The notes under the pieces were generated by a model that worked only from the letters and a program-made list of their open reading frames with translations, was not told where the DNA came from and did no database searches. Below, one piece after another: positions 16,958 to 59,068 of a DNA stretch of 64,000 nucleotides. Source of the stretch: Chthoniobacteraceae bacterium (GTDB taxonomy: Bacteria; Verrucomicrobiota; Verrucomicrobiia; Chthoniobacterales; Chthoniobacteraceae); assembly GCA_031409335.1 (NCBI GenBank), contig JANNWY010000195.1:1-64000 (forward strand), read 5' to 3'. The translations under genes and the position numbers were made by a program. Positions within the stretch are counted from its first letter, which is position 1. Every line of letters begins with the position of its first letter.

Positions 16958-16961
16958 GGGA

Positions 16962-26996: not shown

Positions 26997-29387
26997 ATGA
27001 CCACTACGCTACCGATCGTCAGCGCGGTCCTCCGCAGGGCGGGCGCGATCCTTGTTGCGACGCTTCTCGTTTCCTTTGCGCCGTCCGATGCGGCGGAGCG
27101 CCGCCTCTCATCCGCCGACCGCAGGGTCGAGGCGGGGGCGGCTGCTTTTCAGCGGGGCGCATTTGAATCCGCGGTCGCCGAGTGGAAATCCGCGGCCGAG
27201 TCCTTTCAGCGAAAGCGCGAGACACCGGCGCTGATCGACACGCTCGCGCAACTCGCCAGCGCGTATCACGCGCTCGGCCAGCACCGCCTCGCGGTCGAGG
27301 TGCTCGACGAGGCGGTGGCGCTCGCGCGTGAATCGAGTGATCGCCCGCGGCTCATCAGTGCGCTCTCGAGCCTCGGCGCGATCAACACATTTTCCCGCGA
27401 AGCCGGCGACGCGGAAAAAACTTTGCGCGAAGCGCTCGCCCTCGCGCGCAAGGAAGGCGATGCCGCCGCGCTCGGCTCGGTGCAGAACAACCTCGGCAAT
27501 CTGCTTGCCGCGCAGGAAAGATTTAGCGAAGCGCGCGCCGCCTATCGCGAGGCCATCGCGCACACGAGCGGCGCGGCCGCCGCGAAGGCCCGCGTGAACC
27601 TCGCCCGGATGGCCGTCGCGAGCGGCGACTTCGCACAGGCGCGCACACTCAACACCGCCGCCATCCAGGCCGCGCAAAGCCTGCCGGATTCGCACGACAA
27701 AGCTTTCGCGCTGCTCCGCGCTGGCCAGACGTGGGAGGAGCTTTTCGAGAATGCTCCCGCGCACGAACAGCGCCGCCGCCTCGACGCGCTGCACGCTTAC
27801 CAGCAGGCCGCGCGCGCCGCCGAGGTGACCGGCGACGACCGCGCGCTGTCGTTCGCGCTGGGCTATACGGGCCGCCTTTACGAGCAGGAAAAAAAGTTTG
27901 CGGAAGCCATGCGGCTCACGAACCGCGCGCTTTTTCTCGCGCAGAAAATCCAATCGCAAGACGTGCTCTACCAGTGGGAATGGCAGATGGGCCGCATCCT
28001 CCGCGCGCAGGGTCGGCGCGACGATGCCATCGCGGCCTGCCAGCGCGCCGTCGAGTTGCTGAAAAACATCCGCACCGATCTCTCGACGCGCCTCGGCAAC
28101 AGCAATGCGCGCTCGTCGTTCCGCGAAAAGGCGGGCGGCGTGTATTTCGATCTCGCCGATCTCCTGCTCCAGCGCGCGGACGATCTCACCGATGAAGCGG
28201 CGCTGCGCGATTGCCTGATCGAGGCGCGCGACGCCTGCGAGCAGCTCAAGACCGTCGAGCTCGAGGATTATTTCCAGGACGATTGCGTGAACCTTTTGAA
28301 AAAGAAGCGCGAGACGATCGAGGACATTCTCCAGTCAAAAGGCTCCGCAAAAGAGCAGGACAAGGATGGTCGCAATGCCGCATTGGAAAAGGCCACGCGC
28401 ACCACGGCGGTCGTCTATATCATCCCGCTGCACGATCGCACCGAGACGCTCATCAGCCTGCCCGGCGGGCTGCGCCGCGTGAAGTCGCGCGCCACCGTCG
28501 CGCAGATCACGGAGACGGTGCGCGCATTCCGCGAGCATCTCGAAAAACGCACCACCAGCGAATACCTCGCGGAATCGTGGCAGCTCTACGACTGGCTGAT
28601 CCGCCCGCTCGAAACGCTGCTCGAACAAAACAAAATCGACACGCTCGTCTTCGTGCCGGACGGCGCGCTGCGCACGATCCCGATGGCCGCGCTGAATGAC
28701 CGCCAGAATTTCCTCATCGAGAAATACTCCATCGCCATCACGCCGGGCCTCACGCTCATGGAGCCGCGGCCGATCGCGCGCACGAATATGACCGTGATGG
28801 CCAGCGGCCTTTCCGATTCCGTGCAGGGCTACCAGGCGCTGCCATTCGTGGTGGCGGAGATGAACCGGCTCAAGGAACTCTTCAATCCGGACATCATTAT
28901 GAATCGCGATTTCGCGCCGGAGCGACTGGTGAAGGAATTCGCCGCGCGCCCGTACTCGATCGTCCACATCGCGTCGCACGGCGAGTTCAGCAGCGATGTC
29001 AAAAAGACCTTCGTGCTCACCTACAATTCGCGCTTCACGCTCGACGCCCTCGAGAAACTGCTCAGCCCGACGCTGCTTCGCAAAGATCCCGTCGAGATGC
29101 TCACGCTCAGCGCCTGCCAGACCGCCGCGGGCGACGATCGCGCGGCGCTCGGGCTCGGCGGTATCGCGGTGAAAGCGGGCGCGCGCAGTGCCTTCGCGAC
29201 GCTTTGGAATGTGAACGACCAGGCCTCGACAACGCTCGTCGGTGATTTCTACACGACGCTGCGCGACCAGCCGCAAATGTCGAAAGCGCAGGCGCTCCGC
29301 AAAGCGCAGGTGGCGCTGCTGAAGGATGAACGCTTCAGCCATCCGTGCCTCTGGGCGCCGTATCTCATCATCGGCAACTGGCTGTGA
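26997..29387 (+). CDS. Exported TPR-CHAT domain (caspase-like) protein
   Basis: Signal-peptide-like N-terminus, TPR repeats (NNLGNLLAAQERFSEA, YQWEWQMGRIL), and CHAT motifs FVPDGALRTIPMAAL, HIASHG (His), LSACQTA (Cys), TLWNVND and HPCLWAPYLIIGNWL. Confidence 0.95.
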   Translation: MTTTLPIVSAVLRRAGAILVATLLVSFAPSDAAERRLSSADRRVEAGAAAFQRGAFESAVAEWKSAAESFQRKRETPALIDTLAQLASAYHALGQHRLAVEVLDEAVALARESSDRPRLISALSSLGAINTFSREAGDAEKTLREALALARKEGDAAALGSVQNNLGNLLAAQERFSEARAAYREAIAHTSGAAAAKARVNLARMAVASGDFAQARTLNTAAIQAAQSLPDSHDKAFALLRAGQTWEELFENAPAHEQRRRLDALHAYQQAARAAEVTGDDRALSFALGYTGRLYEQEKKFAEAMRLTNRALFLAQKIQSQDVLYQWEWQMGRILRAQGRRDDAIAACQRAVELLKNIRTDLSTRLGNSNARSSFREKAGGVYFDLADLLLQRADDLTDEAALRDCLIEARDACEQLKTVELEDYFQDDCVNLLKKKRETIEDILQSKGSAKEQDKDGRNAALEKATRTTAVVYIIPLHDRTETLISLPGGLRRVKSRATVAQITETVRAFREHLEKRTTSEYLAESWQLYDWLIRPLETLLEQNKIDTLVFVPDGALRTIPMAALNDRQNFLIEKYSIAITPGLTLMEPRPIARTNMTVMASGLSDSVQGYQALPFVVAEMNRLKELFNPDIIMNRDFAPERLVKEFAARPYSIVHIASHGEFSSDVKKTFVLTYNSRFTLDALEKLLSPTLLRKDPVEMLTLSACQTAAGDDRAALGLGGIAVKAGARSAFATLWNVNDQASTTLVGDFYTTLRDQPQMSKAQALRKAQVALLKDERFSHPCLWAPYLIIGNWL

Positions 29388-29424
29388 AAACGGGTGTGAT
29401 TCAAAGTGGCGACAGCGCAAAAAA

Positions 29425-29501
29425 TCGTGCTCGTCCTCCTACTCGTCCACGAAAAACGCGGCACCTTCGAGGACGAGGACGAGTAGGAGTAGGAGGACGA
29501 G
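29425..29501. repeat. Inverted hexamer-repeat element, (TCGTCC/TCCTAC)n ... (GAGGAC/GAGTAG)n
   Basis: Left arm tcgtgc tcgtcc tcctac tcgtcc pairs with right arm ggacgagtaggag-taggag-gacgag; intergenic between CHAT and the cyclase. Confidence 0.85.
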
Positions 29502-29517
29502 TCGCCGACCCTTGCCT

Positions 29518-31548
29518 GTGAAGCGGCTTCGCAAGGCGCTCCAGCGCCCGTGGGTCGCCTGCATCGTCATCAGCCTGCTCGTCCTCGGCGCGATCCTCGG
29601 CGTGCGCGCGGCGGGCTTGCTCCAGGGCCAGGAACTCGATGCCTATGACCATTTCATCGGCTGGCGCTCGGACCCGGACGCGAAGGACGACCGCATCGCC
29701 ATCGTCGGCATGACCGAGGACGACCTCAAAAAATACGGTTACCCGCTCGACGACGCGAAGCTCGCGGAAGTGCTCGAAGCTCTCGACCGCCGCGAACCCT
29801 GCGTGATCGGCTTCGACCTTTATCGCGACCTGCCCGAGCCGCGCACCGGTGAGCTTTACCCACAACTGGAAGCGGCCCTGAAAAAACTCGAGCGTGTCAT
29901 CGTCATCGAGCGCGTCGGCTACTTCGGATTGCCGCCGGCGCTCGCGGATGGACCCGAGCACCGGGTCGCGGCCAACAACCTTGCAAAGGACTACGCCATC
30001 GACGGCTACTACCGGCGCATGCCGCTCGCGATCCAACGGGATGTGGAAGGGAACCGGATCGACCCGTCGAAGAAAAGTTTAAGCCTCGCCGTCACGCTGG
30101 CTTATCTCGATGCGCACGGCGTGGACTACGCAGCGGTGCCGGATCCGGACAGCACTCGCGACGATCCGCTCACGCTCCTGCGGCTCGGCACGACAATCTT
30201 CCCGCGCCTCACCGCGAACGCGGGCGGTTACGTCGGCCTGCGTGTTTTCGACTACGAATACCTTCTCGATTTCAAAGGCCCGCGCCGCTTCGGGCCGCGC
30301 GAATCCACCGTGGAAAAAACCGAGGACTCGCCCATTGGCCGGATCCGGCAGCGCATTCACGACTACAGCTTCGGCGATGTCATCGAGGGCCGCATCCCGC
30401 CCGATGCCCTGCGCGACAAGATCGTATTCGTCGCGACGGTGATGCCGAGCATCAAGGACAGCAACCCGACGCCGATCGACGACAACCTGCGCGGCGTGGT
30501 GCAGCACGCGATGGCCGTGAATCAACTTTTGCGCGCCGCGCTCGACGGCGAGAAACCGATGACGTGGTGGCCGGAATGGGCCGAAGTCGCGTGGATCGCA
30601 GCGGCCACGCTGCTCGGCGGCGCGCTTGGCGTGTGGTTCCGTTCGCCGTGGAAACTCGCGCCCGCGCTGCTGCTGCTCCTCGGCGGCATCCACGGGGCCG
30701 GCTGGCTCATGTTTCGGGACGCCGGCACATGGATCCTCGTCGTCGCGCCCGCGCTCGGCAGCTTCATTGCCGCGACTTTTGTCACCTCCTTCATCGCCTA
30801 TCTCGAACTCACCGAACGCGGCGCGATGCAGACCATTTTTTCCCGGCACGTCTCCTCGAAAGTCGTCGATGAACTCTGGGCAAATCGTGACGCCTTTCTC
30901 GAAGGCAACCGGCTGCGCCCTTCCCGGCTCACCGCCACCGTGCTCTTCACCGACCTCAAGGGTTTCTCCACGACCTCGGAAAAAATGGACCCCGCGACGC
31001 TGCTCGACTGGATGAACCGCTACATGGACGCCGTCGCGCGCCACGTCGATGCGCACAATGGCATGGTCAACAAATTCATCGGCGACGCCATCATGGCCGT
31101 CTTCGGCGCGCCCATCCCGAGCAGCGGCGAAGAAGCCATCGACCGCGACGCGGACAACGCCGTGCAGTGCGCGCTGGCGATGGAGAAAACGCTCATCGCG
31201 CTCAACGAGGAATGGCGCGCCGAGGGTCTGCCGACCACGGAAATGCGCGTCGGCATTTACACCGGCGGCCTCGTCGCCGGCAGCCTCGGCACCACCGACC
31301 GCATGGAATTCACCGTGCTCGGCGACACCGTGAACACCGCCGCGCGGCTCGAAAGCGCGGGCAAGGAAGCCACCGGCCCGGACATGCCGCAAAGCCCCTG
31401 CATCATCCTCGTCGGCCAGACGACATTCGAGCGGCTGCACGGTCGCTACCGCACGCTTCCGCTCGGAGCTATGACCTTGAAGGGAAAAGCCGAAAAGATT
31501 AGCGTCCATCGAGTCATCGGTTTGGCTCAGCCAAAATCATCCATATGA
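29518..31548 (+). CDS. CHASE2-domain class III adenylate cyclase (676 aa)
   Basis: N-terminal TM helix, CHASE2 (ELDAYDHF, DDRIAIVGMTEDD, IGFDLYRD, GVVQHA), 3 TM helices, and cyclase motifs VLFTDLKGFS, NKFIGDAIMA and FTVLGDTVNTAARLE. The Lys/Thr specificity pair implies ATP. GTG start inferred. Confidence 0.94.
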   Translation: MKRLRKALQRPWVACIVISLLVLGAILGVRAAGLLQGQELDAYDHFIGWRSDPDAKDDRIAIVGMTEDDLKKYGYPLDDAKLAEVLEALDRREPCVIGFDLYRDLPEPRTGELYPQLEAALKKLERVIVIERVGYFGLPPALADGPEHRVAANNLAKDYAIDGYYRRMPLAIQRDVEGNRIDPSKKSLSLAVTLAYLDAHGVDYAAVPDPDSTRDDPLTLLRLGTTIFPRLTANAGGYVGLRVFDYEYLLDFKGPRRFGPRESTVEKTEDSPIGRIRQRIHDYSFGDVIEGRIPPDALRDKIVFVATVMPSIKDSNPTPIDDNLRGVVQHAMAVNQLLRAALDGEKPMTWWPEWAEVAWIAAATLLGGALGVWFRSPWKLAPALLLLLGGIHGAGWLMFRDAGTWILVVAPALGSFIAATFVTSFIAYLELTERGAMQTIFSRHVSSKVVDELWANRDAFLEGNRLRPSRLTATVLFTDLKGFSTTSEKMDPATLLDWMNRYMDAVARHVDAHNGMVNKFIGDAIMAVFGAPIPSSGEEAIDRDADNAVQCALAMEKTLIALNEEWRAEGLPTTEMRVGIYTGGLVAGSLGTTDRMEFTVLGDTVNTAARLESAGKEATGPDMPQSPCIILVGQTTFERLHGRYRTLPLGAMTLKGKAEKISVHRVIGLAQPKSSI

Positions 31549-32345
31549 AAACGTCCGCATTGCTCCATTCACTCATCGGCGCCGCGCTCCTCCACACCGC
31601 CGCTCCCATCGCCACCAGCCAGGAAAAATCCGAGCCCGCCGCTTCGCCAACAAAGGCTCCCGCGGCTCCCGCGGTGCCCGTCCCCGCCGCACCCGCGCCC
31701 GCAAAACGCAAAACGCTCAACTTCACCGCTCCAAAAAATGCCGGTCCCACCGGCCCGCGCGTCGATGGCGACGGAGGTTCGCGTACCGGCGGGGAAAAAC
31801 TTCCCTACATCTGCGTGCTCTCGCCAAAACAAATCGCGCTCACCACGCAGGCGCAGCCCGCGCTGTTCTGGTTTCAAACGGAGCCATCGAACGCCGGCTT
31901 TGAACTCACCGTCACCGAGCCCAAAAAAGCCGAGCCGCTGCTCAGCCTCAAAGGCAGCGAAAAGCAAGCCGGCGGCACGCACAGCGTCTCGCTCGCGAAA
32001 AACAAAGTCACCCTCACCCCAAACGTCAGCTACCAGTGGAGCATCGCGCTCGTGCCCGACCCGAAGAACCGCTCGAAGGATCTCATCGCCAGCGGCTACG
32101 TGAAGCGCATCGAAGCACCCGCCGACCTCACCGCGCAGCTCGCAAAAACCCCCGCGCAAGCGGACCGCGCCGCGCTCTACGCGCAAGCCGGATACTGGTA
32201 CGACGCGCTGCAATCCATCTCGCTCGCGATCGGCGAAGCCGCGAAAAAGAAGGACACGGCTGCCGTCGGTGAGCTGAAAAGATTACGCGCCTCGCTCCTG
32301 GAGCAAGGCGACCTCAAACAAGCCGCCGCCGCCGATCGGAAATAA
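31545..32345 (+). CDS. Exported DUF928 domain protein
   Basis: Signal peptide, Pro/Ala linker, RVDGDGGSR, LTTQAQPALFWF, YQWSIAL, GYVKRI and YAQAGYWYDAL; the start overlaps the cyclase stop (ATGA). Confidence 0.88.
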   Translation: MKTSALLHSLIGAALLHTAAPIATSQEKSEPAASPTKAPAAPAVPVPAAPAPAKRKTLNFTAPKNAGPTGPRVDGDGGSRTGGEKLPYICVLSPKQIALTTQAQPALFWFQTEPSNAGFELTVTEPKKAEPLLSLKGSEKQAGGTHSVSLAKNKVTLTPNVSYQWSIALVPDPKNRSKDLIASGYVKRIEAPADLTAQLAKTPAQADRAALYAQAGYWYDALQSISLAIGEAAKKKDTAAVGELKRLRASLLEQGDLKQAAAADRK

Positions 32346-32495
32346 CAAGGAGCGGCGATTTCCGAATCGCCGACCCAAACGATCGCGCCGAGCGCCCATC
32401 TTCCCCGGTAGCCGCGTCGCACCCGCCACCTTTCCGCGATCATCTGCCGCTCCGCGTGTTTGCTGGGTCAGCGGTTCGGAGACCGCCGCTCCTTG
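32346..32495. repeat. REP/REPIN-like inverted-repeat element between converging operons
   Basis: caaggagcggcgatttccgaatcgccgacccaaac (32346-32380) is the inverted counterpart of gtttgctgggtcagcggttcggagaccgccgctccttg (32458-32495). Each arm is GGAG plus its own short palindrome. Confidence 0.82.
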
Positions 32496-32508
32496 ATGCA
32501 CTCCCCGC

Positions 32509-34443
32509 TCAAAACGCGCTGATACTCACGCTGAAGTGCAGCCCGTAATCCTGCGCGTTGTCCCCGCTTTTCACCGTATTCCCCTGGTTCAACGCATAGC
32601 CCCAGTAGAGCTGCGCGCTCACTCGTTTCGTCGGCGTAAAAATCACCCCAGCACCCACGCTCGACAAAATTTCCAGCCGGTCATCGCCGCCGCCTTTCGG
32701 CTTCGCGCCGATGTATTCCTTGCGATCCCAGCCCGCCCCGAAATCGAAGAACGGCGCGAACGTCAAGATCGGCTCCTTCAACTTGTTTTTCCAAACCGGC
32801 ACACGCACCTCCAGCGAACCGAACACCCCGTTGTCGCGCAGGATTTGATTTTCCCGATACCCCCGCACGCTCTGCGCGCCGCCGAGACTGTATTGCTCCA
32901 GCGAAAGCAGCGGATCGTTCGCGAACTGCGCATTGATCCGCACGACCGCGAGATTCTCCGTCTCGAAAAGACGGCGCACATATTGCGCCTGCCCGAGCCA
33001 CGAAAAGAACTGCCCGTCCGGCAGCTTCCGCACGCCATCCGTCGAGCCGATGCCGCCGCCGAGCCCGTTCGCGTGACGCGTCGCGCCAAATTCATTGATC
33101 CCGAGATTGAACGTCGAGCGCACCGCCAGCACATGCTTCTGGCTGCGGTTCACAAACTCGAGCGCCAGCCGCAGCACGAATACTTCCGTCTCCCCATCGA
33201 CCGCACCCGCCGACAACGTGAACGGACGCCCGAGCAGAAAGCTGCTGCTCTTCCGCTTATCCGCCGTCACCGACACCGCAAATTCATTCGTCAGGCTTTC
33301 GTACAACGGCTGCCGCAGCGTCACGCCGTACTGCTCCGACTCGCTCGTGATATCGAGCGGCTGAAACTGCTCCTCGACGATCGCCGCATCATTCCGGCTC
33401 GCGTGAAATTCCAGCGTCGTGTGCCACGGCGAAATCGGAATCCGGTAGGAACCCTCAATGTTCTCATCCCCGCTCGCCTCCCAGCTCTCCACCGTCTCCG
33501 AAGTCGTGTGCAGGATTCCGTAACGCAGCGAAATCGGATCGTTGTGCCCCGTCAGATTCAGCACCGACGCATTCACCTCGAGAATCTCCGCGCCCACGCT
33601 CGGCGGACGGCGATTGCTAAAATCCAGGCTCAAGCGGAACGGCTGATTCTCCTGCACGCTCACCTTCAACATACTCTCGCCCGGCTTCACCCCTGGCATC
33701 AGCTCCGCATTGATCTGCCGGATATTCGGATTTTCCCGCAGCAATTGCAGCCGCTCCTTCATCCGGTTGAAATTCAGCGGCGTCCCCGCGCTGCGCCGCA
33801 TTTCATGCCGCAGCCACCACGCGCGAAACCACCAATTCCCGCTCATCTCGATGTCCGTCAGCCGCCCCTCGACGATCTTGAAAACGATGATCCCATCCTT
33901 CAAATCCTGATCCGGCAGCGTCGCCCCCGAGTTGATAAATCCACGCTCCACGTAATGCACCGTAATCGCCTGCCGCGCCTCCTCGAGTTCCGCGCCCGTG
34001 ATCTCGCGCCCCGCAAAACGCGCCACCAACTTCTCCAGTTCGCGATCGGAAAAAACCGTGTTCCCCTCAAACCGAAACCGTTTCACCTGCACGCGCAGCG
34101 CCGACTCCAGCGTCCCCGTATCCGCAAACCCCGGCGCGACCGGCGGCAGCACCGGCTCGATCTCCGCCGGCTCGAGCCTCAGTTTGTAAGGCAGTAGTTT
34201 TCCGCGCCTCACACCCGTCCCGCCCGCAGTCGCCGGCAACTGCGGCGTCAGCACGATCTCCTCACCCGGCAGCAGCGACGGCTCCTCGACTCCCGCCGGC
34301 AAAGGATTCGCCGGCAGCACCTCCAGATTCGGCGTCTGCTGCGCCCGCGCCAACCCCACGCCCGCAAGGATCGTCATAACGAGTGTCGCAGCGATCGGCA
34401 GAATCCTTCTGTCAAGTAAAAATCGATGGGCGGGGAAGAGCAC
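32509..34443 (-). CDS. ShlB/FhaC/HecB family two-partner secretion outer-membrane transporter (TpsB)
   Basis: Signal peptide, POTRA motifs (VKRFRFEGNTVFS, YVERGFINSGA, IVEGRL), barrel motif LGGAQSVRGYREN (VRGY) and terminal Phe. Start uncertain (34467 TTG, 34443 GTG or 34377 ATG). Confidence 0.95.
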   Translation of the reverse strand: MLFPAHRFLLDRRILPIAATLVMTILAGVGLARAQQTPNLEVLPANPLPAGVEEPSLLPGEEIVLTPQLPATAGGTGVRRGKLLPYKLRLEPAEIEPVLPPVAPGFADTGTLESALRVQVKRFRFEGNTVFSDRELEKLVARFAGREITGAELEEARQAITVHYVERGFINSGATLPDQDLKDGIIVFKIVEGRLTDIEMSGNWWFRAWWLRHEMRRSAGTPLNFNRMKERLQLLRENPNIRQINAELMPGVKPGESMLKVSVQENQPFRLSLDFSNRRPPSVGAEILEVNASVLNLTGHNDPISLRYGILHTTSETVESWEASGDENIEGSYRIPISPWHTTLEFHASRNDAAIVEEQFQPLDITSESEQYGVTLRQPLYESLTNEFAVSVTADKRKSSSFLLGRPFTLSAGAVDGETEVFVLRLALEFVNRSQKHVLAVRSTFNLGINEFGATRHANGLGGGIGSTDGVRKLPDGQFFSWLGQAQYVRRLFETENLAVVRINAQFANDPLLSLEQYSLGGAQSVRGYRENQILRDNGVFGSLEVRVPVWKNKLKEPILTFAPFFDFGAGWDRKEYIGAKPKGGGDDRLEILSSVGAGVIFTPTKRVSAQLYWGYALNQGNTVKSGDNAQDYGLHFSVSISAF

Positions 34444-34463
34444 GTCGAAAATGAAAACAGATT

Positions 34464-45894: not shown

Positions 45895-45951
45895 GGCGCG
45901 GGCATGTAGCAGATGCCGGGGCCGCGGGCAAATCCCCGCGCCGCGCAAAAC

Positions 45952-48900: not shown

Positions 48901-49224
48901 AAAATTCGCCCCGGCGATTTCGGATTTCAGCATTCCGTCGATCGTCGAAATGTTTCCGCCGGTGACGCGCGAGAGGATGTTCGTCACGTCCGCCGGCCCG
49001 GAGAAAGTGGCCGACTGGGTTTGGGCGAGGCTGAATTCGCTGAAGCTGTGGAACAGATTTCCGCCGACCTTTTTTCCAAGGCTCGCGGGAATCGCAAAGG
49101 CTGGGCCGGGCAGCGCCCCGGCTGCGCCGAAACTGCCGTCGGTGGCGACCTGCGCGCGGCTTGCGGACGGGAGGCCGACTGCGAGCAGTAGCAACCATCG
49201 GTAGCGAAAATTCACGTAATTCAT
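45952..49224 (-). CDS. Filamentous haemagglutinin family TpsA protein 3 (1090 aa) with an inserted P-domain-like module
   Basis: Clear signal peptide (ASRA-QV), GGNLFHSFSEF, FYFLNPKGVVFG, beta-helix repeats and the conserved C-terminal peptide. Confidence 0.95.
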   Translation of the reverse strand: MNYVNFRYRWLLLLAVGLPSASRAQVATDGSFGAAGALPGPAFAIPASLGKKVGGNLFHSFSEFSLAQTQSATFSGPADVTNILSRVTGGNISTIDGMLKSEIAGANFYFLNPKGVVFGPSASVDVTGSFAVSTGDRITLEDGRHFKAQRSDPSDALLTSAAPAAFGFLGKGAGPITVDGSQLQGPPDPDTGLPTPLGKWSLVGGDVRMKNGASLNATGVVIRGGRLTMEGSKIEVTASRPVHGADVKVRGALTLRDVSSINASASGGGDLHLSADSISISGLGSGISTTSSGTGAASIRLDVTGELNIQTGSLIQTVAGDAGAGGSILVKAGRVAIIGQGAPQTGIAADTSSGASAGNVQLDIAGSLSISGGGKISSDTFGGGGAGGNIGIAAQSVSIAGEGLPSFTAISTESQPGLNGRGGNIVLRVRDALTITGGGLITAATFSPGAGGSIDITAGSMRISGAGASGLTGINASTRDPQSGGPGGDLRLSIAGPLVLTDRGQITVNTFGSGLGGNADITASSISLTGERTSISAESTLGINGGAGGRILVRADSIKASAGASISASTAGSGAGGTLDIVAKSIALDGARITSDTAGPEQVPVPRKVSDLEIAFTIDLPQAQNLTLGLVHQEIFIPLLSGVGGTEQRFENTTLADNAKTPIENGTAPFTGRFKPQGLLGVFDGTLFEGEWLLFIGGSDPAETITVQNWSLSTGGFTRSSTDVPKAVVATDPFPFSVLIVENIPPERFVPIIPGRGGDVHVIANMLTLANGARISAQTSNSSRGGDVGIAAGEMVVSTKGDGSGATLISAESTNTGAGGRGGDISIAAGSLKINGASDSSTGISARSLGAGESGSVRLQLGKLALDSRASIASSNEGTGNAGSVRVRADGDIFMRGGSFISVSAVRANAGDINIASGTRIDLREGSGITASAGLNGGSITIAAPDFIHLIDSSITAIAGTTPSPVGGQGGNISIDPEFMVLDHSVIKADAAIGRGGNIFLQADNFLSSETSITATGTTAGTVEIVAPELDLSAALIILPNALVDASRQLREQCARRLGLDFSSFLVIGRGGLDLGPEDPLPSGPVRKRR

Positions 49225-52200: not shown

Positions 52201-55200
52201 CACTTGCTGACCCGATGACGTTTCCGCCGTTGACGGCCAGCCCGCCAACGGTCTCGCTTTGCCCGTTGAGGTCGAGCGTGCCGCCGTTGAGCGTTACGAC
52301 AGCAGCATCGTTAATCTGGCTGCTCGCCGAGAGCCGCACGGTCGCACTGCTGCTGACCGTCAAAGCTCCGCTGATCGCCCCGCCGAAATTATTCGCGCCC
52401 CCCCCTTGCGGCTTGTTGAGCACGAGCGTGCCCGCGTTGACCGTGGTTGCGCCGGTGTAGGTGTTGTCGGCCGTGCCAGCGATCGTGACGGTGCCCGTGC
52501 CCAGCTTCATCACCGACCCCGCGCCGGTGATAGGGCGGTTCATCGTCCATGTGCCGTCAAGTCCGAGTTGCCCGCCAGCATTGACGAAAATCGTCGTGCC
52601 CGCGCCGAGCGAGCCGGTCACCCCGGAGAGGTTGAAAGTGAGCTTGCCGGCGTTGATCGTGGCCGTGCCAAAGTTGAGGGTGTCGGCGAAAGTGTTGCGG
52701 ATTTCCTGCGTGCCGGAACCGTTTTTCACGAGGTTCAGGGCCGCGCCACCGCCGCCCGAGAACGAGCGAATGATGCCGTTGAAAATGTGGTCGCCCGTGT
52801 TGTTGATGGTCAGCGTGGCCAGCGTGGGATTGCCGTTTTCCTCGTTCTGAATGATCGAAGCGACATCGTCCGCGTCGGAACTCAGGCCCGCGACGGTTTG
52901 ATTCGAGCCAAGCAACTCGAACTTCGCCGCGGCGTTCCCGTGATTGAAAGTCAGCACCGAGGTCGGGCCGAACTGATTGGCTGCGCCCATGCGCAAAAAG
53001 GCATTGTCCCCCAAGCTCGACCCGAGCGTGACGTTGCCCGGCAGCGCACTGCCGCCAGGGGAAGACGCCATGAGCGAGCGCGTCAGGATCAGCGTCGGGC
53101 CGGTGTAGCTGTTCACCCCGGTGAGCACGAGCGTGCCAGCGCCCGTCTTGATCAGCGAGCCGCTCCCGGAGATCGCACCCGTAAGCGTCAGCGTATTACT
53201 GATCGAGGGAATCGCCACCGTGCCATCTCCAGTGAGCGTGACCACCCGGTTCGTGGTGCCGCTCGCGCCGGTGAATTCGAGCGTGCCGCCATTGAAAACA
53301 AGGCTGCTTCCATCACCGAGCGGACTGGCCGTGCCGTTGTTCGCCACGGTCGGCACAGCCACGGTCCCGCTGTTCAACGTCATCGCGCCCGTGAAGGTAT
53401 TCGCCCCGCTCATGGTCAAAATGCCGGTGCCGGTTTTCGTCAGGCCGAACGCGCCGCCGGATTCCTGCACGATCGTGGAGATATTGAGCTGGCTGCTCCC
53501 TTCGACACGGATTTCGCCACTCGTTTTCAAGCTCAAGGCCAGCGTCCGCCCACCGGCACCCGTGCCGGCGATGGTGGAAACCACGTTGGCATTCGTCTTG
53601 ATGAGCGGAATGCCCGTGCCTCGTCCGCCATTGAGGCTCAAGATCATGTTGGTCGTGCCGCTCGCGTTCGTCAGCGTGGTGTTTGCCGTGCCCGTGAAGG
53701 AAATATCCTGGACTTCCGTGCTGCCGCCGAGGCTCGCGCCGTTGATGTCGATCGTCCCGGTCGCTGCGATCACCGCATTATCCGTGATCGCGGGAATGCC
53801 CGGCGTGAACCAGTTCCCGCCCGTCGCCCACGGTCCATTGTTCACGTTCAGCACTTTCGGAGAGATCACCCGGAATTCCGCGGCAAACCCACCGACCAGA
53901 CCCGCCCCAAAGTTGATCGAAGTCGGGACCATTTTATTCAAGGTCACCCCGAAGCCGTCCGGCACCCTTGCACCGTTGAGCGTGGCGACCACCGCCGCGC
54001 CTTGCAGAAATGGCGTCGAGTCCACTGCAGTGAAAAAGCCGCCCAGGAAAGTGAGGCCGTTCGATAGGCTGCCGAGTTGGAAGTCGAAAGCGATGCGGCT
54101 CGTCGCGCAAAGCGGCACGGCAAAAGGAGTGGTAGGATCGGTCAGGCGCAGCAGATCATTGCTCGGATCGTAGAGCGCGCCGGTATGACCGACATCGAAT
54201 CGAAAATCGGTTTCCTGCGTGGCATTGAGGGACACCGCCGTCAGGATGCCCGTGCCGAGCCCCGGCAGGGCGGTATTCCCGCCGGGCGAAACCGTCCCTC
54301 CGCCAGAGATCACGCTGACACTTCCCGTGCCTCCGAGCGTTGCCTCGGGCAAAAGCGCGATCGGCGAGCTGACGCTGCCCGTGACGAGCAACTTGCCATC
54401 GTTCACGATCGTGGGGCCGGTGTAGGCGTTCGTGCCGCTTAGCGTCAGGGTGCCCTGGCCAGATTTCGTCAAGCCACCGGTGGACGAACTCAGGATGGAA
54501 GAGCTGATCGTCAAGTCATCGGTTGGCAGGTCGGTGCGGACGATCAATTCCGTGGAACCGCCGGTCGTGATGCCGGACCCCGCTCCGCCAAAGATCGTCG
54601 AGGCCCCGCCCGCCTTGAGCAGCCCGCCTTCGGTCAGCGTCAGAGTCGCCCCGGCGGTGAGTCCGAAGGTCGTGTTGCCGCCGAGCCGCAAGGTCCGCCA
54701 CGAGGTGGAATTGAACACCGGAACAAACGCGAAATTCAGATTCACATGATTGCCGGGCGTCAGGGAATTCGTCGCCACGGTATTCGCGTCCGTGCCGTAA
54801 CTGAGCGCGCGCACAAAGCCGCCGGCATCGCGCGCGGCAAAGTTCGCGCCGTCGGCGAAAAGGCGCGGGCTCAGGATGCGGTTGACCGTGCCTGGGACGA
54901 AAATCTCTGCCCCGTTCAAGCCCGGGACGAAGTTTCCCGTCGCCCCCGCAGACGCGGAAAGGCTGGTGAAGGAAAGTCCGCTTTCCGTGGTGCCCATGCC
55001 GGGACTCGTGGTCAGGGTGGAGCGCACGTTCCCGTCGCCGGCCGTGAAAGCGAGCGCGCCATACGGCAGACGCAAGACGGCGTCGAAAGGCGTTTGGTTT
55101 TCCGCGCGATATTCAAACGCGCCGTTGCCCGCGAGCGTGACGTTCGTACTCGGAGGCGCGTTGAGATAGGCGTCAAGCAGCGCGAAATCGCCCGCGTCCA

Positions 55201-56272
55201 CGAGCACCGCCTCGGTTTGGACCGTGCCGCCTTTGACCGTGACCATCCCCAGAACCGCCCCCACGCTGGGCCCTGCGATCGTGGCGAGAGTGCCCAGGGT
55301 CAGCGCGCCGCGCCCGAGTTTTTGAAAGCTGCCGTTGATCGGGATGTTGACCGTCGCGCTGTTTGCGCCCGTATCGATCGTCGGGACCGAGGAGGCCGGA
55401 CGGCTCAGCGTCAACACCGTTCCCGCTCCGATCTCCAGCGCGTAGCCCGAAGAGTCGAACTGCAATCCGCCGGCCGAAATGTCCGCGCCAAGCGTCACGA
55501 TTCCCCCGTTTCCACCGAAGACGGCGATGTCATGCACGTTCACGGTATTGCTCCAGGCAACATCCGTGCCCACGATTCCCCCCGGCAAATTGTCGAACCG
55601 CGCCAAGGTCGTATTCCAAGTCCCCGTGCCTCCGAGCGTCCCATTGTTAAACGCGCCATCGCCATCCCAAATCATCGGCGAAACGCCGGGTGTGGCGCTG
55701 CGGCTCGTCGCGGCGATCTCCGCGGCGGAGAAGCGCGTGCGTGCATTGGGGAACACCGAGTCCCTGCTCACCAGATAATCGTTGCCGGTGGCGTAGGCGG
55801 TGAACTTGATCTCACTGAGATTCTTATCGCTCCCTGCCAGGATCTGATTGCCTGGAGCGGAGCCCGTTCCCTCGAAAATCACCTCGAAAATATCCACGTC
55901 GCCCGGAGTGAATGTCCCGGCGCTCCCGCTGATTTGAAAGGTGTTGCCAACGAGTTCGATTACATATCCGGCCGAAAGGAACGGCTCGCGGATGTTAGAC
56001 ATGATGTTCGATAGATTGATCTCGGCGTCATCGACCTGAAAGTGGAGTTGAAACGCTTCCACCTCGGGTGGATCGACCCGCATCACCCACGTAGCGGTAC
56101 CCGTGGAGTACGAAAGCGACATCGTCGTCTTCGTGCCGCCGGTCGCGGTCGCGGCGTGGCCGCAATCTGGAGCGAGCACGATCAGCCCCATGCAGACAAG
56201 CAGCGGGGGGAGGATGGGACGCGCAAGGATCGGCTGGCGAACCAGCCCGGGGGAGGGAGGATTTTTACACAT
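49265..56272 (-). CDS. Giant PEP-CTERM protein with autotransporter-associated beta-strand repeats (~2335 aa)
   Basis: Many LTKxGxGTLTLxGxNTYTGxT repeats, no beta-barrel, and C-terminal AVPEPGSLSLLLLGALSLLRRGKR. Start 56272 chosen from the RBS GAGGCGG; alternatives are 56320 and a later ATG (MGLIVL). Confidence 0.93.
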   Translation of the reverse strand: MCKNPPSPGLVRQPILARPILPPLLVCMGLIVLAPDCGHAATATGGTKTTMSLSYSTGTATWVMRVDPPEVEAFQLHFQVDDAEINLSNIMSNIREPFLSAGYVIELVGNTFQISGSAGTFTPGDVDIFEVIFEGTGSAPGNQILAGSDKNLSEIKFTAYATGNDYLVSRDSVFPNARTRFSAAEIAATSRSATPGVSPMIWDGDGAFNNGTLGGTGTWNTTLARFDNLPGGIVGTDVAWSNTVNVHDIAVFGGNGGIVTLGADISAGGLQFDSSGYALEIGAGTVLTLSRPASSVPTIDTGANSATVNIPINGSFQKLGRGALTLGTLATIAGPSVGAVLGMVTVKGGTVQTEAVLVDAGDFALLDAYLNAPPSTNVTLAGNGAFEYRAENQTPFDAVLRLPYGALAFTAGDGNVRSTLTTSPGMGTTESGLSFTSLSASAGATGNFVPGLNGAEIFVPGTVNRILSPRLFADGANFAARDAGGFVRALSYGTDANTVATNSLTPGNHVNLNFAFVPVFNSTSWRTLRLGGNTTFGLTAGATLTLTEGGLLKAGGASTIFGGAGSGITTGGSTELIVRTDLPTDDLTISSSILSSSTGGLTKSGQGTLTLSGTNAYTGPTIVNDGKLLVTGSVSSPIALLPEATLGGTGSVSVISGGGTVSPGGNTALPGLGTGILTAVSLNATQETDFRFDVGHTGALYDPSNDLLRLTDPTTPFAVPLCATSRIAFDFQLGSLSNGLTFLGGFFTAVDSTPFLQGAAVVATLNGARVPDGFGVTLNKMVPTSINFGAGLVGGFAAEFRVISPKVLNVNNGPWATGGNWFTPGIPAITDNAVIAATGTIDINGASLGGSTEVQDISFTGTANTTLTNASGTTNMILSLNGGRGTGIPLIKTNANVVSTIAGTGAGGRTLALSLKTSGEIRVEGSSQLNISTIVQESGGAFGLTKTGTGILTMSGANTFTGAMTLNSGTVAVPTVANNGTASPLGDGSSLVFNGGTLEFTGASGTTNRVVTLTGDGTVAIPSISNTLTLTGAISGSGSLIKTGAGTLVLTGVNSYTGPTLILTRSLMASSPGGSALPGNVTLGSSLGDNAFLRMGAANQFGPTSVLTFNHGNAAAKFELLGSNQTVAGLSSDADDVASIIQNEENGNPTLATLTINNTGDHIFNGIIRSFSGGGGAALNLVKNGSGTQEIRNTFADTLNFGTATINAGKLTFNLSGVTGSLGAGTTIFVNAGGQLGLDGTWTMNRPITGAGSVMKLGTGTVTIAGTADNTYTGATTVNAGTLVLNKPQGGGANNFGGAISGALTVSSSATVRLSASSQINDAAVVTLNGGTLDLNGQSETVGGLAVNGGNVIGSASGFLGLFGHVTADASTNSTIAARVNLAVSSPGAARNFTVATGGTLTVSGTVEDGFTGNAANLVKAGAGTLTLAGMNTFTGGVNIMVGTLAAAGGGDQTGRLGQGAVTVNASTTLRSDIGDSFGFFGGAPSVINVLGGTVTTGGAGNFRTTVPSLNLTGGTVTSAGGNTGDGSSGVYSINSGSTVTTNASVTTSTINAPSFGLQSPIVFTVADGSAATDLLVSSALTNVTYGGAAGGVTKAGTGTMTLSGANTYTGATTVNAGTLVLSGSLPNNSAINVNGGTFLVNGSVGAGSLTTVIVGGTVAGTGTINGTLSAAASSIVRVGDIGAGTLTVGTLSFGGAAASPSNVALASTGSVLSRLNVTTMGGLAANGGANSVRLNLSGSTLALGLQVLIDYTGAIGGGGFGGFLLGTLPPRTAAALVNNAGNTSIDLNVTAVDSPVWSGALGSAWSTAVLGPPKNWVLASNNGITTDFLTSDSVLFSDFATTTAVAINGADVTPALIRFNNTTKNYTVTGSNGIAGFLPFTKDGTGTVTLSTTNSFTGPMTLNFGTLSIPTIADGGSPSALGAGSNITFNGGTLQFTGASGSTNRALTLTGAGTISTTTALTLGGQIAGIGGLTKAGTGTLTLTGVNTFTGTTTLSQGNLVLGSAGGTALPGNVTLGTGVQAGIFLIMGAPNQFGPTSVVTFNNGPSRDNKFELRGFNQTVAGIQSDADDTLSIIQNQESGAPPTATLTINNTSNFIFNGLIRTRVGGPLNLVKTGLGTQEIRNVAAAPHAFGTATISAGKLTFNLSGATGTLAATTSVSIAAGATLGLDGTWNMNRDISGAGTVVKQGAGAVTISGAQSYATLQTLAGTTTLTSSLPGATINNTGGILNLNANATNSTVNVSAVTNFGASQTLTALNIGVGAVATLVAAGPSPADDGGGDMNNAGVLDLPEDFLSGEGVLLPAGPAVPEPGSLSLLLLGALSLLRRGKREPLT

Positions 56273-56323
56273 AGCTTTATCGACCGCCTCGCCTTTCGTC
56301 ACGAAAGACGAATTACACATGGG

Positions 56324-56352
56324 ATTGCGACCACTTCGCTACGAATTGTCAA
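56324..56352 (-). promoter_or_regulatory. Putative promoter TTGACA-N17-CGCAAT
   Basis: Perfect -35 hexamer and 17-bp spacer upstream of the giant PEP-CTERM gene. Confidence 0.45.
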
Positions 56353-56518
56353 TCACGGAATTCGCATATTTTCAGCAGCTCACTCACAAACAACGGACGT
56401 GTTTGCGAAGATGCCGCGCGCTGGTCTCCCGAAACGAATTGTGGCGGCTGGATTTGCCGGATTTCGGACGCGCCGCCTCCGCTCGGGCGGGTGTTTTCCA
56501 ATCGATCAACTCAATCGC

Positions 56519-56548
56519 CCCCTTCGGCAAGCTCAGGGCCTTCGGCAA
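56519..56548. repeat. Short REP-like remnant CCCTTCGGCAAGCTCAGGG with a partial tandem copy
   Basis: ccttcggcaa occurs twice around gctcaggg; resembles the widespread CCCTTCGACAAGCTCAGGG intergenic repeat (from recall). Confidence 0.45.
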
Positions 56549-56551
56549 ATC

Positions 56552-59068
56552 TCAAAATCTCTGCCTCACCCGCCGCAGCAATCCGAGCGTTCCCAACAGC
56601 AGCAGACTCAGCGTGCCCGGCTCCGGAACGATGCGGATTTGCAGCGCGCGACCGGCGACCGGGCCTGCGCCAAAGTCGGCGATCTGGGGGATCATTTGGT
56701 CGAACACGATGCCGAAGTCGCCAGGCATCGGGGTGCCGTTGAATGTGGAAACATAGGCGGCGTCGCGGACGTAATCCGAAAAATCGGTGAGTGAATCGGT
56801 GAAGAAGCCCACGATGAAGAGGTCGCCGAGCGTAAGGAACGGCACGCCGAGATCGAAGAGCAGCCGGTTCGTGGCGCACAGGCCCGTGGTGAATGGAGTG
56901 GCGCCCGTGAGGTGCAACACATCGTTCCCGCTGGCGGAAGCGAAGAGGTAGTCCGGCCCGAACTGGCTGACCTCGAAGTGGAAACCCATGTCGAGCGAGG
57001 GATCGACGGAGGTCGCGGTGAGAATGCCCGCGCTCGCGCCGGGCGAGACGGTGCCCGCGCCGGAGAGCGCGCCCACCGTTCCAGTCCCACCGAGCGTCGC
57101 GCTGCCACTGAGGTTGACCGCGGAGGAGGTCGCGATCGAGCCGTTGACGATCAACGTGCCTTCCAGCACGTCGGTGGGGCCGGTGAAGGTATTGGTGCCC
57201 GTGAGAGTCAGCGTGCCCGCACCGGATTTCAGCAGGCCAGCGGTGTTGAAGATCGGACTCGCGATGGTGAGCGCATCGGCGACGGTGTCGGTGCGGACGA
57301 CGAGCGTGGGACCGGCGGTGGTGAGTCCGCCAGTCAAGTTGCCGGGAGCGTGACTAATCATTCCCGGTGCGCCGCCGCCGGATTTGATCAAGCCGCCTTC
57401 CGAGAGCGTGAGCGTTTGGTCCGCGCCAAATGTGCCTCCCGCGGCGTTGCCGCCGAGATTCAAGGTGCGGAACGAAAAGCCGGGGAGTGTGCCGGGCGCG
57501 GGGCCGGTGATTTTCACATGCGTGTTGGGAGCGGCCGTGTCGATCGGGGAAGTGTTCGCGTCACTGCCATAATTAAGCGCCCTCACAAATCTCTCGAAGG
57601 CACCGGCACCGGGATTGACTGCGGCGTAATCGGCGCCGTTAAAAAAGAGCGTCGGGCTCAAAAGCTGGGCGGTTGGAGGACTGACGACGAAAAAGATGCC
57701 CGTACTAAGTGCGTTGGCGACCACGAAATTTCCCGTCGCAACACCGCTCGGAACGACCAGTGAATTAAAGACGAGGAAGGTGGCTCCGAAGCCGCCGGAG
57801 ACGATTTCCACCGTGCCGTCACCCGAGCCAAAGGTCAGCGCGCCAACGTTCTCAGCACGTAAATCGGTGCTTCCGTTGAGATACCGCAGCGTGCCCTTTC
57901 CCGTAAAGAGGATCGCGGAGTTATCGCTCAACTGATTTTGCCCGCCCGGAAAGACATTGGTCGCGTCGAGTGCCACGGTGCCGCCTTTAATCGTGGTCGC
58001 GCCCGTGTAGGTGTTTGCGCCACCGAGGGTGAGCGTGCCTTTGCCGATTTTTTGGAGTCCGCTGGAACCCACGATCGGCGAGTTGATCGTCGCATCGTTT
58101 CCGCCGGTATCGATCGTCCCCGCCGCACCGCCGGGCTTGCTAAGATTGAGGCTGCCGCCTTGGAAAGTGTAACCCGGCATGTCAAAGCGCAGTCCTCCCG
58201 CCGAGATCGGCTCCGCGAGCGTGACGATCCCCGTGCCCGGATTGCCGCCGAAGATCGCCTCGTCGTTGACGTTGATTGAGTTGCCCCAGAAGACGTTCGG
58301 AAACTCCTGCACCGGCCCCAAAACGTTAGTGTTCAGGTTGTCCCAACTGACGCCCGTCGTATTCCAAGTCCCCGGCCCGCCCATCGTCCCGTTGTCGTTC
58401 ACGGCATCGGGATCCCAGACCATGGGATTCACCCCCGGCGTGACAGTGCGGCTGGTTGTGCCGATCTCCGCCGCAGTGATTCTCCTCGACACGGATCCCG
58501 GCACGTTTGGATCCCGCGCCATGATGAAATCGTTGCCTTTGGCAAACATGGTGAACTTGATCTGGTCGAGCGGCTTGTTGTTTCCCGTCCCGACCGCTCC
58601 CAAGCCGCCACCCGCCGGAGCGGGTGCCGGAGAAGGCGGAATAGGCGGAGTCGCGGTAAATCGCCCCTCAAAAATGTCCACATCGCCAGGGGTGAGCGAG
58701 AGCGCCGTCCCGGACACTTGATACCCGTTGGCTCCGTCCGGCACCACGGAAATCATCATGAACGGATTCCGCCCATCGACACCCATCTCCGGCGAGAAAG
58801 TGAGGTCCGGCACGGCTTCGCCCGGATCGAACTGGATGTGGAGTTGGAAAGATTCCACATCCTCGGGATCGCAGCGCATGACCCACTTGGAGCCCGTTGC
58901 GTAATACTTGAGCGACATCGTGGTCGTCGTGCCGCCGGTCGCGGTCGCGGCCTGACTGGCTTCAGGGAGGACAGCAAGCCACCCGAGACCAGCCAGCATC
59001 GGCAGGATTAGTGTGCGTACGAGGATTGACCGGGAAACCGGCCAGTGGGGGGAGTGGCTAGAGTTCAT
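56552..59068 (-). CDS. PEP-CTERM protein with autotransporter-associated beta-strand repeats (838 aa); paralog of the N-terminal third of the giant protein
   Basis: RBS GAGGT, signal peptide (ASQA-AT), LQKIGKGTLTLGGANTYTGATT, TVSPGASAGILT and IVPEPGTLSLLLLGTLGLLRRVRQRF. Confidence 0.93.
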   Translation of the reverse strand: MNSSHSPHWPVSRSILVRTLILPMLAGLGWLAVLPEASQAATATGGTTTTMSLKYYATGSKWVMRCDPEDVESFQLHIQFDPGEAVPDLTFSPEMGVDGRNPFMMISVVPDGANGYQVSGTALSLTPGDVDIFEGRFTATPPIPPSPAPAPAGGGLGAVGTGNNKPLDQIKFTMFAKGNDFIMARDPNVPGSVSRRITAAEIGTTSRTVTPGVNPMVWDPDAVNDNGTMGGPGTWNTTGVSWDNLNTNVLGPVQEFPNVFWGNSINVNDEAIFGGNPGTGIVTLAEPISAGGLRFDMPGYTFQGGSLNLSKPGGAAGTIDTGGNDATINSPIVGSSGLQKIGKGTLTLGGANTYTGATTIKGGTVALDATNVFPGGQNQLSDNSAILFTGKGTLRYLNGSTDLRAENVGALTFGSGDGTVEIVSGGFGATFLVFNSLVVPSGVATGNFVVANALSTGIFFVVSPPTAQLLSPTLFFNGADYAAVNPGAGAFERFVRALNYGSDANTSPIDTAAPNTHVKITGPAPGTLPGFSFRTLNLGGNAAGGTFGADQTLTLSEGGLIKSGGGAPGMISHAPGNLTGGLTTAGPTLVVRTDTVADALTIASPIFNTAGLLKSGAGTLTLTGTNTFTGPTDVLEGTLIVNGSIATSSAVNLSGSATLGGTGTVGALSGAGTVSPGASAGILTATSVDPSLDMGFHFEVSQFGPDYLFASASGNDVLHLTGATPFTTGLCATNRLLFDLGVPFLTLGDLFIVGFFTDSLTDFSDYVRDAAYVSTFNGTPMPGDFGIVFDQMIPQIADFGAGPVAGRALQIRIVPEPGTLSLLLLGTLGLLRRVRQRF

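Follow-up and report, generated by a model that had tools for sequence, protein, structure and literature searches.

The 64,000-nucleotide (nt) stretch analysed here (positions 1 to 64,000 of contig JANNWY010000195.1, our contig C195, of the Chthoniobacteraceae bacterium assembly GCA_031409335.1; hereafter the window) holds one complete copy of a conserved set of five gene families, namely a two-partner-secreted protein (TpsA), its outer-membrane transporter (TpsB), a TPR-CHAT protease, a DUF928 protein and a CHASE2 class III cyclase, which lies here among genes for large surface proteins (Table 1). The genome comprises 7.94 Mb in 326 contigs and is 98% complete, and the loci closest to the window by their DUF928 protein come from records labelled Verrucomicrobiota or Chthoniobacterales. 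The gene set represents a real, conserved module, probably for envelope signalling, and full-text literature searches found no paper on the combination of CHASE2, CHAT, DUF928 and two-partner secretion.

Table 1. Genes and features of the five-family module and its surface-protein neighbours in the window.
Feature	Position	Strand	Basis
TPR-CHAT protease, 796 residues	26997..29387	+	Pfam TPRs and CHAT; translation
CHAT-cyclase spacer with strong inverted repeat	29388..29517	+	RNA fold
CHASE2 and class III adenylate-type cyclase, 676 residues from the most likely start GTG 29518 (longest frame 29326-31548)	29518..31548	+	Pfam, hydropathy, starts of relatives
DUF928 protein, 266 residues, signal-like N-terminus	31545..32345	+	Pfam, alignment, structure model
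TpsB outer-membrane transporter, POTRA_2 and ShlB barrel, probable start (longest frame to 34605)	32509..34467	-	Pfam
TpsA1, 2024 residues: TPS domain, beta-helix repeats, C-terminal tail 34509-34676	34464..40538	-	Pfam, TIGR01901, tail profile
Exported protein, 445 residues, PATR-like stretch, PEP-CTERM-like end (PVPEP, hydrophobic stretch, RRRSRR)	40644..41981	+	By eye
TpsA2, 1341 residues: TPS domain, repeats, C-terminal tail 41977-42144	41923..45948	-	Pfam, TIGR01901, tail profile
TpsA3, 1090 residues: TPS domain, repeats, C-terminal tail 45970-46137	45952..49224	-	Pfam, TIGR01901, tail profile
Protein of 2351 residues, 8 PATR repeats, PEP-CTERM-like end	49265..56320	-	Pfam, NCBIfam TIGR02601, C-terminus by eye
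PATR protein with PEP-CTERM end; longest frame 863 residues, true start may be later	56552..59143	-	Pfam, TIGR02595

An earlier note on this DNA had described a plus-strand operon converging on a minus-strand run of two PEP-CTERM genes, three tpsA genes and one tpsB gene. Every gene that it listed was confirmed in Pfam scans; the minus-strand run is broken, however, by the plus-strand gene for a PEP-CTERM-like protein of 445 residues, which occupies the 1384-nt gap between tpsA2 and tpsA1 and overlaps the 3' end of tpsA2. Within the run, tpsA3 sits 3 nt upstream of tpsA2, and tpsB probably starts at TTG 34467, overlapping the stop codon of tpsA1 as TTGA, or at GTG 34443.

The search for the same families in other genomes showed that they travel together. 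We collected 80 loci through their DUF928 gene, with up to 10 kb on each side, and searched their open reading frames by phmmer with the domains of the window. Among the 32 loci in which DUF928 is flanked by 9 kb or more on either side (full-flank loci), the CHASE2 cyclase was present in 30, CHAT in 28, TpsA in 26 and TpsB in 24, and all five families occurred together in 21. In the loci holding both partners, the two genes were found on the same strand within 300 bp in 64 of 71 cases for the cyclase and DUF928, in 51 of 56 for CHAT and the cyclase and in 27 of 39 for TpsA and TpsB, and DUF928 and TpsB were convergent in 27 of 52 loci; the arrangement seen in the window is thus the usual one. 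According to their record titles the loci belong to Verrucomicrobiota, Beta- and Gammaproteobacteria, Geobacteraceae, Nitrospirota, Myxococcota, Phycisphaeraceae and one spirochaete; several labels of metagenome-assembled genomes among them look wrong, so that single names carry no weight. Across these groups the genes of the set are retained in shuffled order. The genome under study contains one DUF928, six CHASE2, four CHAT and four two-partner secretion (TPS) matches, and since CHASE2 and CHAT genes are this few, our own arithmetic gives a chance of about 1-2% per family of meeting one in a span of 20 kb. The linkage of the families, which the earlier note had put forward, therefore lies far above chance.

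The protease gene encodes a CHAT domain (PF12770) that scores 185.8 bits in Pfam against a cut-off of 24, in a protein built from a signal-like N-terminus (residues 1-32), TPRs (about residues 80-360) and the CHAT domain itself (residues 529-794). Its catalytic dyad, which had been noted as intact, is indeed present, with the His in HIASHG and the Cys in LSACQT, and both residues are invariant in all 166 aligned sequences. CHAT proteins are caspase-like members of clan CD, the enzymes of which are endopeptidases; a cleavage after Arg would be a guess from other enzymes of this clan. Export signals and membrane helices were called throughout this work by hydropathy rules of our own, not by SignalP or DeepTMHMM. 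Of the 114 full-length CHAT relatives for which starts were called, 105 have a strongly hydrophobic stretch of 10 residues near the N-terminus, as compared with 26 of 114 for an internal control stretch, and a lipobox-like motif occurred in only two of these 114 relatives. As a separate observation, one locus (L044:5591-9841, plus strand) has CHAT and the CHASE2 cyclase within one open frame of 1417 residues; a true fusion would conflict with the predicted topology (see below), and an assembly or sequencing error is an equally likely explanation.

The cyclase gene encodes a CHASE2 domain (PF05226, 159.3 bits, cut-off 26.3) and a class III cyclase domain (PF00211, 76.5 bits, cut-off 21.9). Hydropathy predicts one N-terminal helix, a non-cytoplasmic CHASE2 domain, further helices and a cytoplasmic cyclase, with helices at residues 75-93, 444-462 and 470-488 of the open reading frame; an N-terminal membrane helix and at least one helix after CHASE2 are likewise predicted in all 53 cyclase relatives. 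The metal-binding Asp pair, the transition-state Asn and the Arg are invariant in the same 53 sequences. At the base-specifying positions the enzyme of the window carries Lys (in NKFIGD) and Thr (in EFTVLG). In class III cyclases a pair of Lys with Thr or Asp selects ATP, and such enzymes make cyclic AMP (cAMP). The Lys/Thr pair thus predicts ATP as the substrate, and the cAMP-type cyclase named in the earlier note is borne out in so far as both residues are present in the window and the catalytic set is conserved. Among the relatives, 28 of 53 have this Lys and 40 of 53 have the Thr.

The start of this gene bears on the operon, which had been described as tight from CHAT to DUF928. The stop codon of the cyclase and the start codon of DUF928 do overlap, as ATGA, whereas the first half of the operon is looser. 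Translation from the first ATG in the cyclase frame (29326) would add a low-complexity leader in overlap with CHAT, and the gene most likely starts at GTG 29518, because relatives begin at the same position; the CHAT and cyclase genes would therefore be separated by a spacer of 130 nt, and this part of the operon would not be tight. RNA folding of the spacer gives a hairpin (-57 kcal/mol, z -2.77), the 3' arm of which covers the GGAGGA directly upstream of the cyclase start. The arm sequence is found again on contigs C150, C229 and C226 of the genome, so that it resembles an intergenic repeat of the repetitive extragenic palindrome (REP) type. In L008, a close relative, the cyclase starts right where the CHAT frame ends.

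The CHASE2 domain, reportedly defined in 2003, was modelled as an alpha/beta domain with a predicted local distance difference test (pLDDT) score of 92.2. Foldseek gave no match to this model in the PDB at E <= 0.001, the best VIA-align match among 48,161 chains (3mvn_A, Z 5.3, root-mean-square deviation (rmsd) 3.1, 107 residues aligned) lies below the stated chance level of 7-8, and the profile of the CHASE2 alignment (A2) had no hit among the PDB sequences, so that no clear solved relative can be named. Its invariant residues include an acidic patch (E10, D15, D71 and D285 in A2 numbering). CHASE2 has been termed a small-molecule receptor domain (PMC8195603), and the available parts of this source and of PMC13001267 do not describe direct binding of a ligand to CHASE2.

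The DUF928 protein (PF06051, 97.7 bits, cut-off 26) is the only match to its family in the genome. A signal-like N-terminus was found by a stricter hydropathy rule in 62 of 70 relatives and is visible in our alignment A1, which holds 32 of the 72 relatives collected. The earlier note had placed CHAT and DUF928 outside the cytoplasm as exported proteins and CHASE2 between membrane helices. The signal-like N-termini shared by the relatives of both proteins, together with the helices that flank CHASE2, fit with the idea that CHAT, DUF928 and CHASE2 may meet there. The DUF928 protein consists of a Pro/Ala linker, a Gly/Arg-rich motif with an invariant R80, a beta-sandwich (residues 89-188) and a helical TPR-like domain (residues 193-265). 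In its structure model (pLDDT 84.4, with a flexible linker) the fold is an Ig-like sandwich followed by a TPR-like helical domain, as in MtxA. Indeed, the best solved match to the model is the C-terminal domain of MtxA (PDB 4z29, Foldseek ranks 1 and 2, E 1e-4), which aligns over 187-189 columns and both domains with a template modelling score of 0.55-0.57 on the target, an rmsd of about 5 A and an identity of 13-14%; the matches that follow are single FN3 domains. According to PMC4439547, MtxA combines an Ig-like domain with a TPR domain and possesses a signal peptide, and a CHASE2 adenylate cyclase gene comes next after mtxA. The two systems thus share an exported protein with Ig-like and TPR-like domains that is encoded beside a CHASE2 adenylate cyclase gene (PDB 4Z29; PMC4439547). 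They differ in that mtxA precedes the cyclase gene, whereas in the window the cyclase gene precedes DUF928, in that the two proteins do not match at the sequence level, and in that the available text of PMC4439547 mentions neither CHAT nor TpsAB. DUF928 proteins and MtxA are likely distant relatives, to judge from the structure model, that share a genomic partner.

Two further comparisons concern contacts of the DUF928 protein. A predicted complex of the periplasmic CHASE2 domain (A2 1-325) with DUF928 (A1 50-266) reached a score of 0.02 against a mark of 0.32, which is evidence neither for nor against a contact. The search for fused forms of DUF928 gave one longer protein (489 residues) with DUF928 alone and no fusion to CHAT or CHASE2, which is weak evidence. 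As for the Gly/Arg motif that DUF928 seemed to share with the TpsA tail described below, it was dropped after a profile comparison (A3 against A1) gave a probability of 0.1 and a single aligned column.

The secretion pair is complete. TpsB has a POTRA_2 domain (71.3 bits) and a ShlB barrel (112 bits) in Pfam, and a hydrophobic segment at residues 68-86. The TPS domains of TpsA1, TpsA2 and TpsA3 score 145.5, 127.3 and 116.4 bits with PF05860 and 77.1, 67.6 and 66.7 bits with TIGR01901 (TPS domain with the NPXG motif), and the Pfam scan found no toxin or haemolysin domain. All three end in the same segment of about 55 residues (A3 in the profile comparison), with the consensus DLSG.L..LP..LLDA...LR..C..RL....SSF.V.GRGGLP..P.G.LPS, in which Cys, Ser and Pro are invariant and GRGG is near-invariant. 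The tail profile matches 43 of 51 TpsA frames of the module loci, the other eight being truncated at locus ends or broken. A six-frame search of the genome found the tail in the three TpsA proteins of the window only; the fourth TPS protein (contig C33) is without it. The tail corresponds to no Pfam family, and among 1.84 billion representative proteins its profile matches 4243 at E <= 0.001 and 858 at E <= 1e-10, mostly at or near the C-terminal end, as judged from the best 150 of the 4243 matches. Proteobacterial tails have a second Cys near the very end, while verrucomicrobial tails, including those of the window, keep one conserved Cys. TpsB transporters export their TpsA partners N-terminus first, and HMW1, which is tethered via a Cys-containing C-terminus, provides a precedent for a retained tail. 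The segment is thus a natural candidate for the periplasm-retained part of TpsA imagined in the earlier note, its periplasmic position being predicted. As in the classical TPS systems (FhaB/FhaC, ShlA/ShlB, HMW1/HMW1B), a TPS domain with NPXG is combined here with a POTRA and ShlB barrel protein. In contrast to these systems, the window has three TpsA paralogues for one TpsB, a tail without a Pfam family and no toxin or haemolysin domain found, and the module genes are fixed beside a protease and a cyclase.

Genes of the kind that could read the cyclase product lie near many other copies of the module. The cNMP_binding domain is what joins one single-linkage gene cluster that extends over 26 of the 80 loci; this domain was found in eight of nine members scanned and is fused to a glutaminase-STAS protein, a Crp helix-turn-helix domain, a Ser/Thr kinase, a sodium:sulfate symporter, an MMPL transporter or a sigma-54 activator; Crp-type genes occur in the loci L067 and L069. 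These neighbours argue that the product of the cyclase is a real signal with lineage-specific readers. The combination of glutaminase, STAS and cNMP_binding in one protein of about 620-660 residues deserves mention on its own account: it lies beside the module in L019, L034, L042-L047, L052, L055, L060 and others, recurs in Verrucomicrobiota, was confirmed by Pfam in both proteins scanned and may be a cAMP-controlled glutaminase. On another contig of the genome under study (locus L088, G000:C251:5000-24000; 390-8527 and 16912-18048), a second CHASE2 cyclase is found beside CHAT-SIR2 and nSTAND1-WD40 proteins, with a cNMP-binding histidine kinase about 8 kb off and without DUF928 or TpsAB; this looks like a separate, conflict-type system.

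The large surface proteins next to the module were thought in the earlier note to be linked to it through PEP-CTERM. The PEP-CTERM end of the protein encoded at 56552-59143 stays below the Pfam cut-off (19.6 against 20.7 bits) and passes that of TIGR02595 (20.3 against 16 bits). The C-terminus of the 2351-residue protein, with VPEP, a hydrophobic stretch and RRGKR, was recognized by eye and has no hidden Markov model (HMM) hit. The same holds for the 445-residue protein, for which no HMM hit was obtained in our scans and the PEP-CTERM-like assignment was made by eye. The stop codon of the 2351-residue gene lies 40 nt before the start of tpsA3, and this spacing suggests that the two genes are probably co-transcribed. 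Relatives of the window PATR/PEP-CTERM proteins were found in five of the 80 loci, and in L013, L015, L020 and L030 their gene stands between DUF928 and TpsA; three of the five have a clear PEP-CTERM end, one has a variant and one frame is cut by the locus end. A clear or variant PEP-CTERM end is thus present in four of the 80 loci, all of which are labelled Chthoniobacter. The linkage therefore exists, in the window and in these four loci, but is confined to one lineage. Other large exported proteins lie beside the module TpsA elsewhere, with HYR domains in 13 loci and of a PATR-like family in eight, and the PEP-CTERM case looks like one instance of a wider habit of placing a large surface protein beside TpsA. 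The two PATR/PEP-CTERM proteins at 49265-59143 (minus strand) also share a segment (ATATGGT..TTMSL.Y...G...WVMR.DP..VE.FQLH) that follows their signal-like start and has no family match in the Pfam and NCBIfam scans.

Outside the module, the window contains upstream the dcw cluster of cell-division genes and an ABC transporter, besides frames that have no match, and downstream an FHA-domain protein. The frames directly upstream of CHAT (23095-26866) have no Pfam match and no relative among the 80 loci and were not counted in the module. Within the dcw cluster, a frame of 873 residues (4130-6751, minus strand) with Mur ligase and MurB domains is an apparent MurC-MurB fusion. The FHA-domain frame (60606-64000, at least 1131 residues) runs past the end of the window; the AT skew around it is extreme (0.41 at 62001-64000) and the other strand has a long open frame as well, which points to sequence that is repetitive or biased.

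How might these parts work together? We propose an outside-in relay in which a surface event would be converted into a change in cAMP by way of TpsAB, CHAT, DUF928 and the CHASE2 cyclase, a reading that we hold tentatively, at a little under even confidence. TpsB would export the TpsA filaments except for their module-specific Cys/GRGG tail, which would be retained at its periplasmic side. There this tail, or else the DUF928 protein, would be cleaved by the exported TPR-CHAT protease. In the order of events put forward by the earlier note, the retained segment would also activate CHAT, and a product of the cleavage would switch CHASE2. DUF928, the gene of which is translationally coupled to the cyclase gene, may be the periplasmic partner of CHASE2, and the cyclase would then change the level of cAMP, with readers encoded elsewhere in the genome. 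We infer the contacts, the cleavages and the direction of the signal in this relay, and none of the contacts is backed by structure prediction. In the form of a secretion-coupled proteolytic relay, where the cell would display its own TpsA filament, CHAT would read the state of the retained tail, and the cut or freed tail, or DUF928, would be the ligand long sought for CHASE2, the proposal is rather unlikely, although conceivable.

Several observations weigh against the outside-in relay. In 25 of the 53 cyclase relatives another residue stands in place of the base-specifying Lys (Gln in 10, Asp in 8), so that the product may differ among the copies and may in some not be cAMP. No gene for a cyclic-nucleotide reader was found by Pfam in the window; the genome has 13 matches, all on other contigs. 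Four of the 32 full-flank loci (L012, L068, L073 and L078) have the cyclase and DUF928 and none of CHAT, TpsB and TpsA, L076 has CHAT, TpsAB and DUF928 without the cyclase, and L085 has TpsAB and DUF928 alone; the other five of the 11 incomplete full-flank loci each lack TpsB, TpsA or both. Such variants suggest that the parts can work in smaller sets. Moreover, the loci were gathered via DUF928 and hence describe the companions of DUF928, not the frequency of the other parts without it. When 301 genomes sampled evenly across the phylum were searched, three gave a match to DUF928 and three to the TpsA tail (one of them weak, E 9.9e-6), with two genomes shared; the module is rare in the sampled genomes, and the overlap of DUF928 and the tail is suggestive, in numbers too small to carry weight. 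Likewise, the profile of alignment A1 misses 4z29 when compared with all PDB sequences and gives weak antibody hits only (E >= 0.038), and the signal peptides were called by a crude hydropathy rule.

In the main rival reading, the parts would serve to hold and release a surface protein. CHAT would then act chiefly on the tail by which TpsA is held in TpsB, and its cut would shed the filament, whereas CHASE2 and DUF928, instead of sensing the outside world, would control or sequester the protease or give notice of the shedding; we consider this doubtful, yet worth serious attention, since a periplasmic cysteine protease, LapG, cleaves the TpsA-type adhesin CdrA from the cell and is sequestered by LapD, a protein of the inner membrane (PMC4694147). 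The invariant Cys and near-invariant GRGG of the module tails would suit such a role, as would the second terminal Cys in the proteobacterial loci, and in shuffled gene orders CHAT lies within 300 bp of TpsB in nine of 42 loci and of TpsA in eight of 39. On the other hand, the verrucomicrobial tails, those of the window included, have one conserved Cys only, the inner-membrane partner is an intact cyclase, and thus an output domain, unlike the second-messenger receptor LapD, and the cyclic-nucleotide readers near many loci fit an inward signal. Alternatively, CHAT may do nothing but process TpsA or its large surface neighbours during export, as FhaB is matured by a dedicated protease, while CHASE2 and DUF928 would form an independent sensor that controls the same operons. 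The cyclase-DUF928 pairs that stand without CHAT or TpsAB within 10 kb (the four loci named above) agree with this, and so do the loci L063, L083 and L084, where blocks of CHAT, TpsB and TpsA can sit about 1 kb from the cyclase-DUF928 pair; we nevertheless regard it as improbable, because in 51 of the 56 loci counted above CHAT stands directly in front of the cyclase in the same orientation, a tighter link than that of CHAT to TpsA or TpsB, which speaks for a common pathway.

A conflict or defence system, in which a caspase-like effector would be combined with a cyclic-nucleotide alarm, as in Pycsar or in the caspase-CHASE2 systems of Aravind's group, appears very unlikely. Among the PADLOC models, those for PycC recognize the cyclase domain (best E 6.3e-26), as they should any class III cyclase, this fold being common to all of them; DUF928, TpsB and TpsA match nothing in PADLOC, and no Pycsar effector gene was found in the window. 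Caspase-CHASE2 fusions do occur in predicted conflict systems (PMC8195603), and the genome itself has the CHASE2 cyclase beside CHAT-SIR2 and nSTAND1-WD40 proteins mentioned above. Against a defence role, the protease of the window is predicted to be exported, away from cytoplasmic targets, and the readers that neighbour the module are metabolic or regulatory, not typical suicide effectors. That the genes might be chance neighbours without a common function can practically be set aside, given that the five occur together in 21 of the 32 full-flank loci, in several phyla and in shuffled order.

The outside-in relay may be compared with three described systems. Like the module, CdrA/CdrB with LapG/LapD of Pseudomonas aeruginosa (PMC4694147) combines a two-partner-secreted surface protein, a periplasmic cysteine protease and an inner-membrane protein linked to a second messenger. 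However, the protease of the window is a clan CD CHAT protein with TPRs instead of the transglutaminase-like LapG, its CHASE2 cyclase would make the messenger whereas LapD is a receptor for cyclic di-GMP (c-di-GMP), DUF928 has no counterpart there, the tail sequence is another one, and the direction is probably outside-in here as against inside-out. None of the Pfam-scanned frames of the window has a LapG- or LapD-type domain, so that the likeness is one of logic only. In Sinorhizobium meliloti, CHASE2 cyclases raise cAMP on a protein signal via an outer-membrane beta-barrel protein (PMC13001267). This CyaD1/CyaD2/CyaK-NsrA-Clr system shares with the module the CHASE2 class III cyclases, and it responds to a protein signal and needs an outer-membrane barrel (PMC13001267). 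Its output is read by a Crp-type regulator (PMC13001267), whereas the window has no Crp gene; its signal is the foreign plant protein uL2, the available text of the source reports no protease, DUF928 or TpsA (PMC13001267), and the barrel of the window is an Omp85-type TpsB with its own secreted substrate. The caspase-CHASE2 fusions of conflict systems and cyanobacterial metacaspases (PMC8195603, PMC2853523) likewise pair a caspase-fold protease with CHASE2, but as far as the available parts of these sources go they do so in one fused protein among STAND NTPases and effectors, while the module has separate genes, a protease with a signal-like N-terminus of its own and, as partners, a secretion pair and DUF928. 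The novelty therefore lies in known families in an undescribed combination, and the closest described systems share its logic, not its parts.

A better knowledge of this module would be of interest beyond the Verrucomicrobiota genome in which we describe it. The C-terminal tail marks out a large subfamily of TpsA proteins, with 4243 representatives at E <= 0.001, that lies outside the coverage of Pfam, and the module would add to the few known periplasmic proteases that are tied to type Vb secretion. It fixes CHASE2 beside one exported protein, one protease and one secretion pair, and in this way offers a short, testable list of candidate ligands. If the secretion-coupled proteolytic relay is true, CHASE2 would gain its first protein ligand made by the cell itself, and a protease of the caspase type would serve signalling from the envelope to cAMP rather than cell death.

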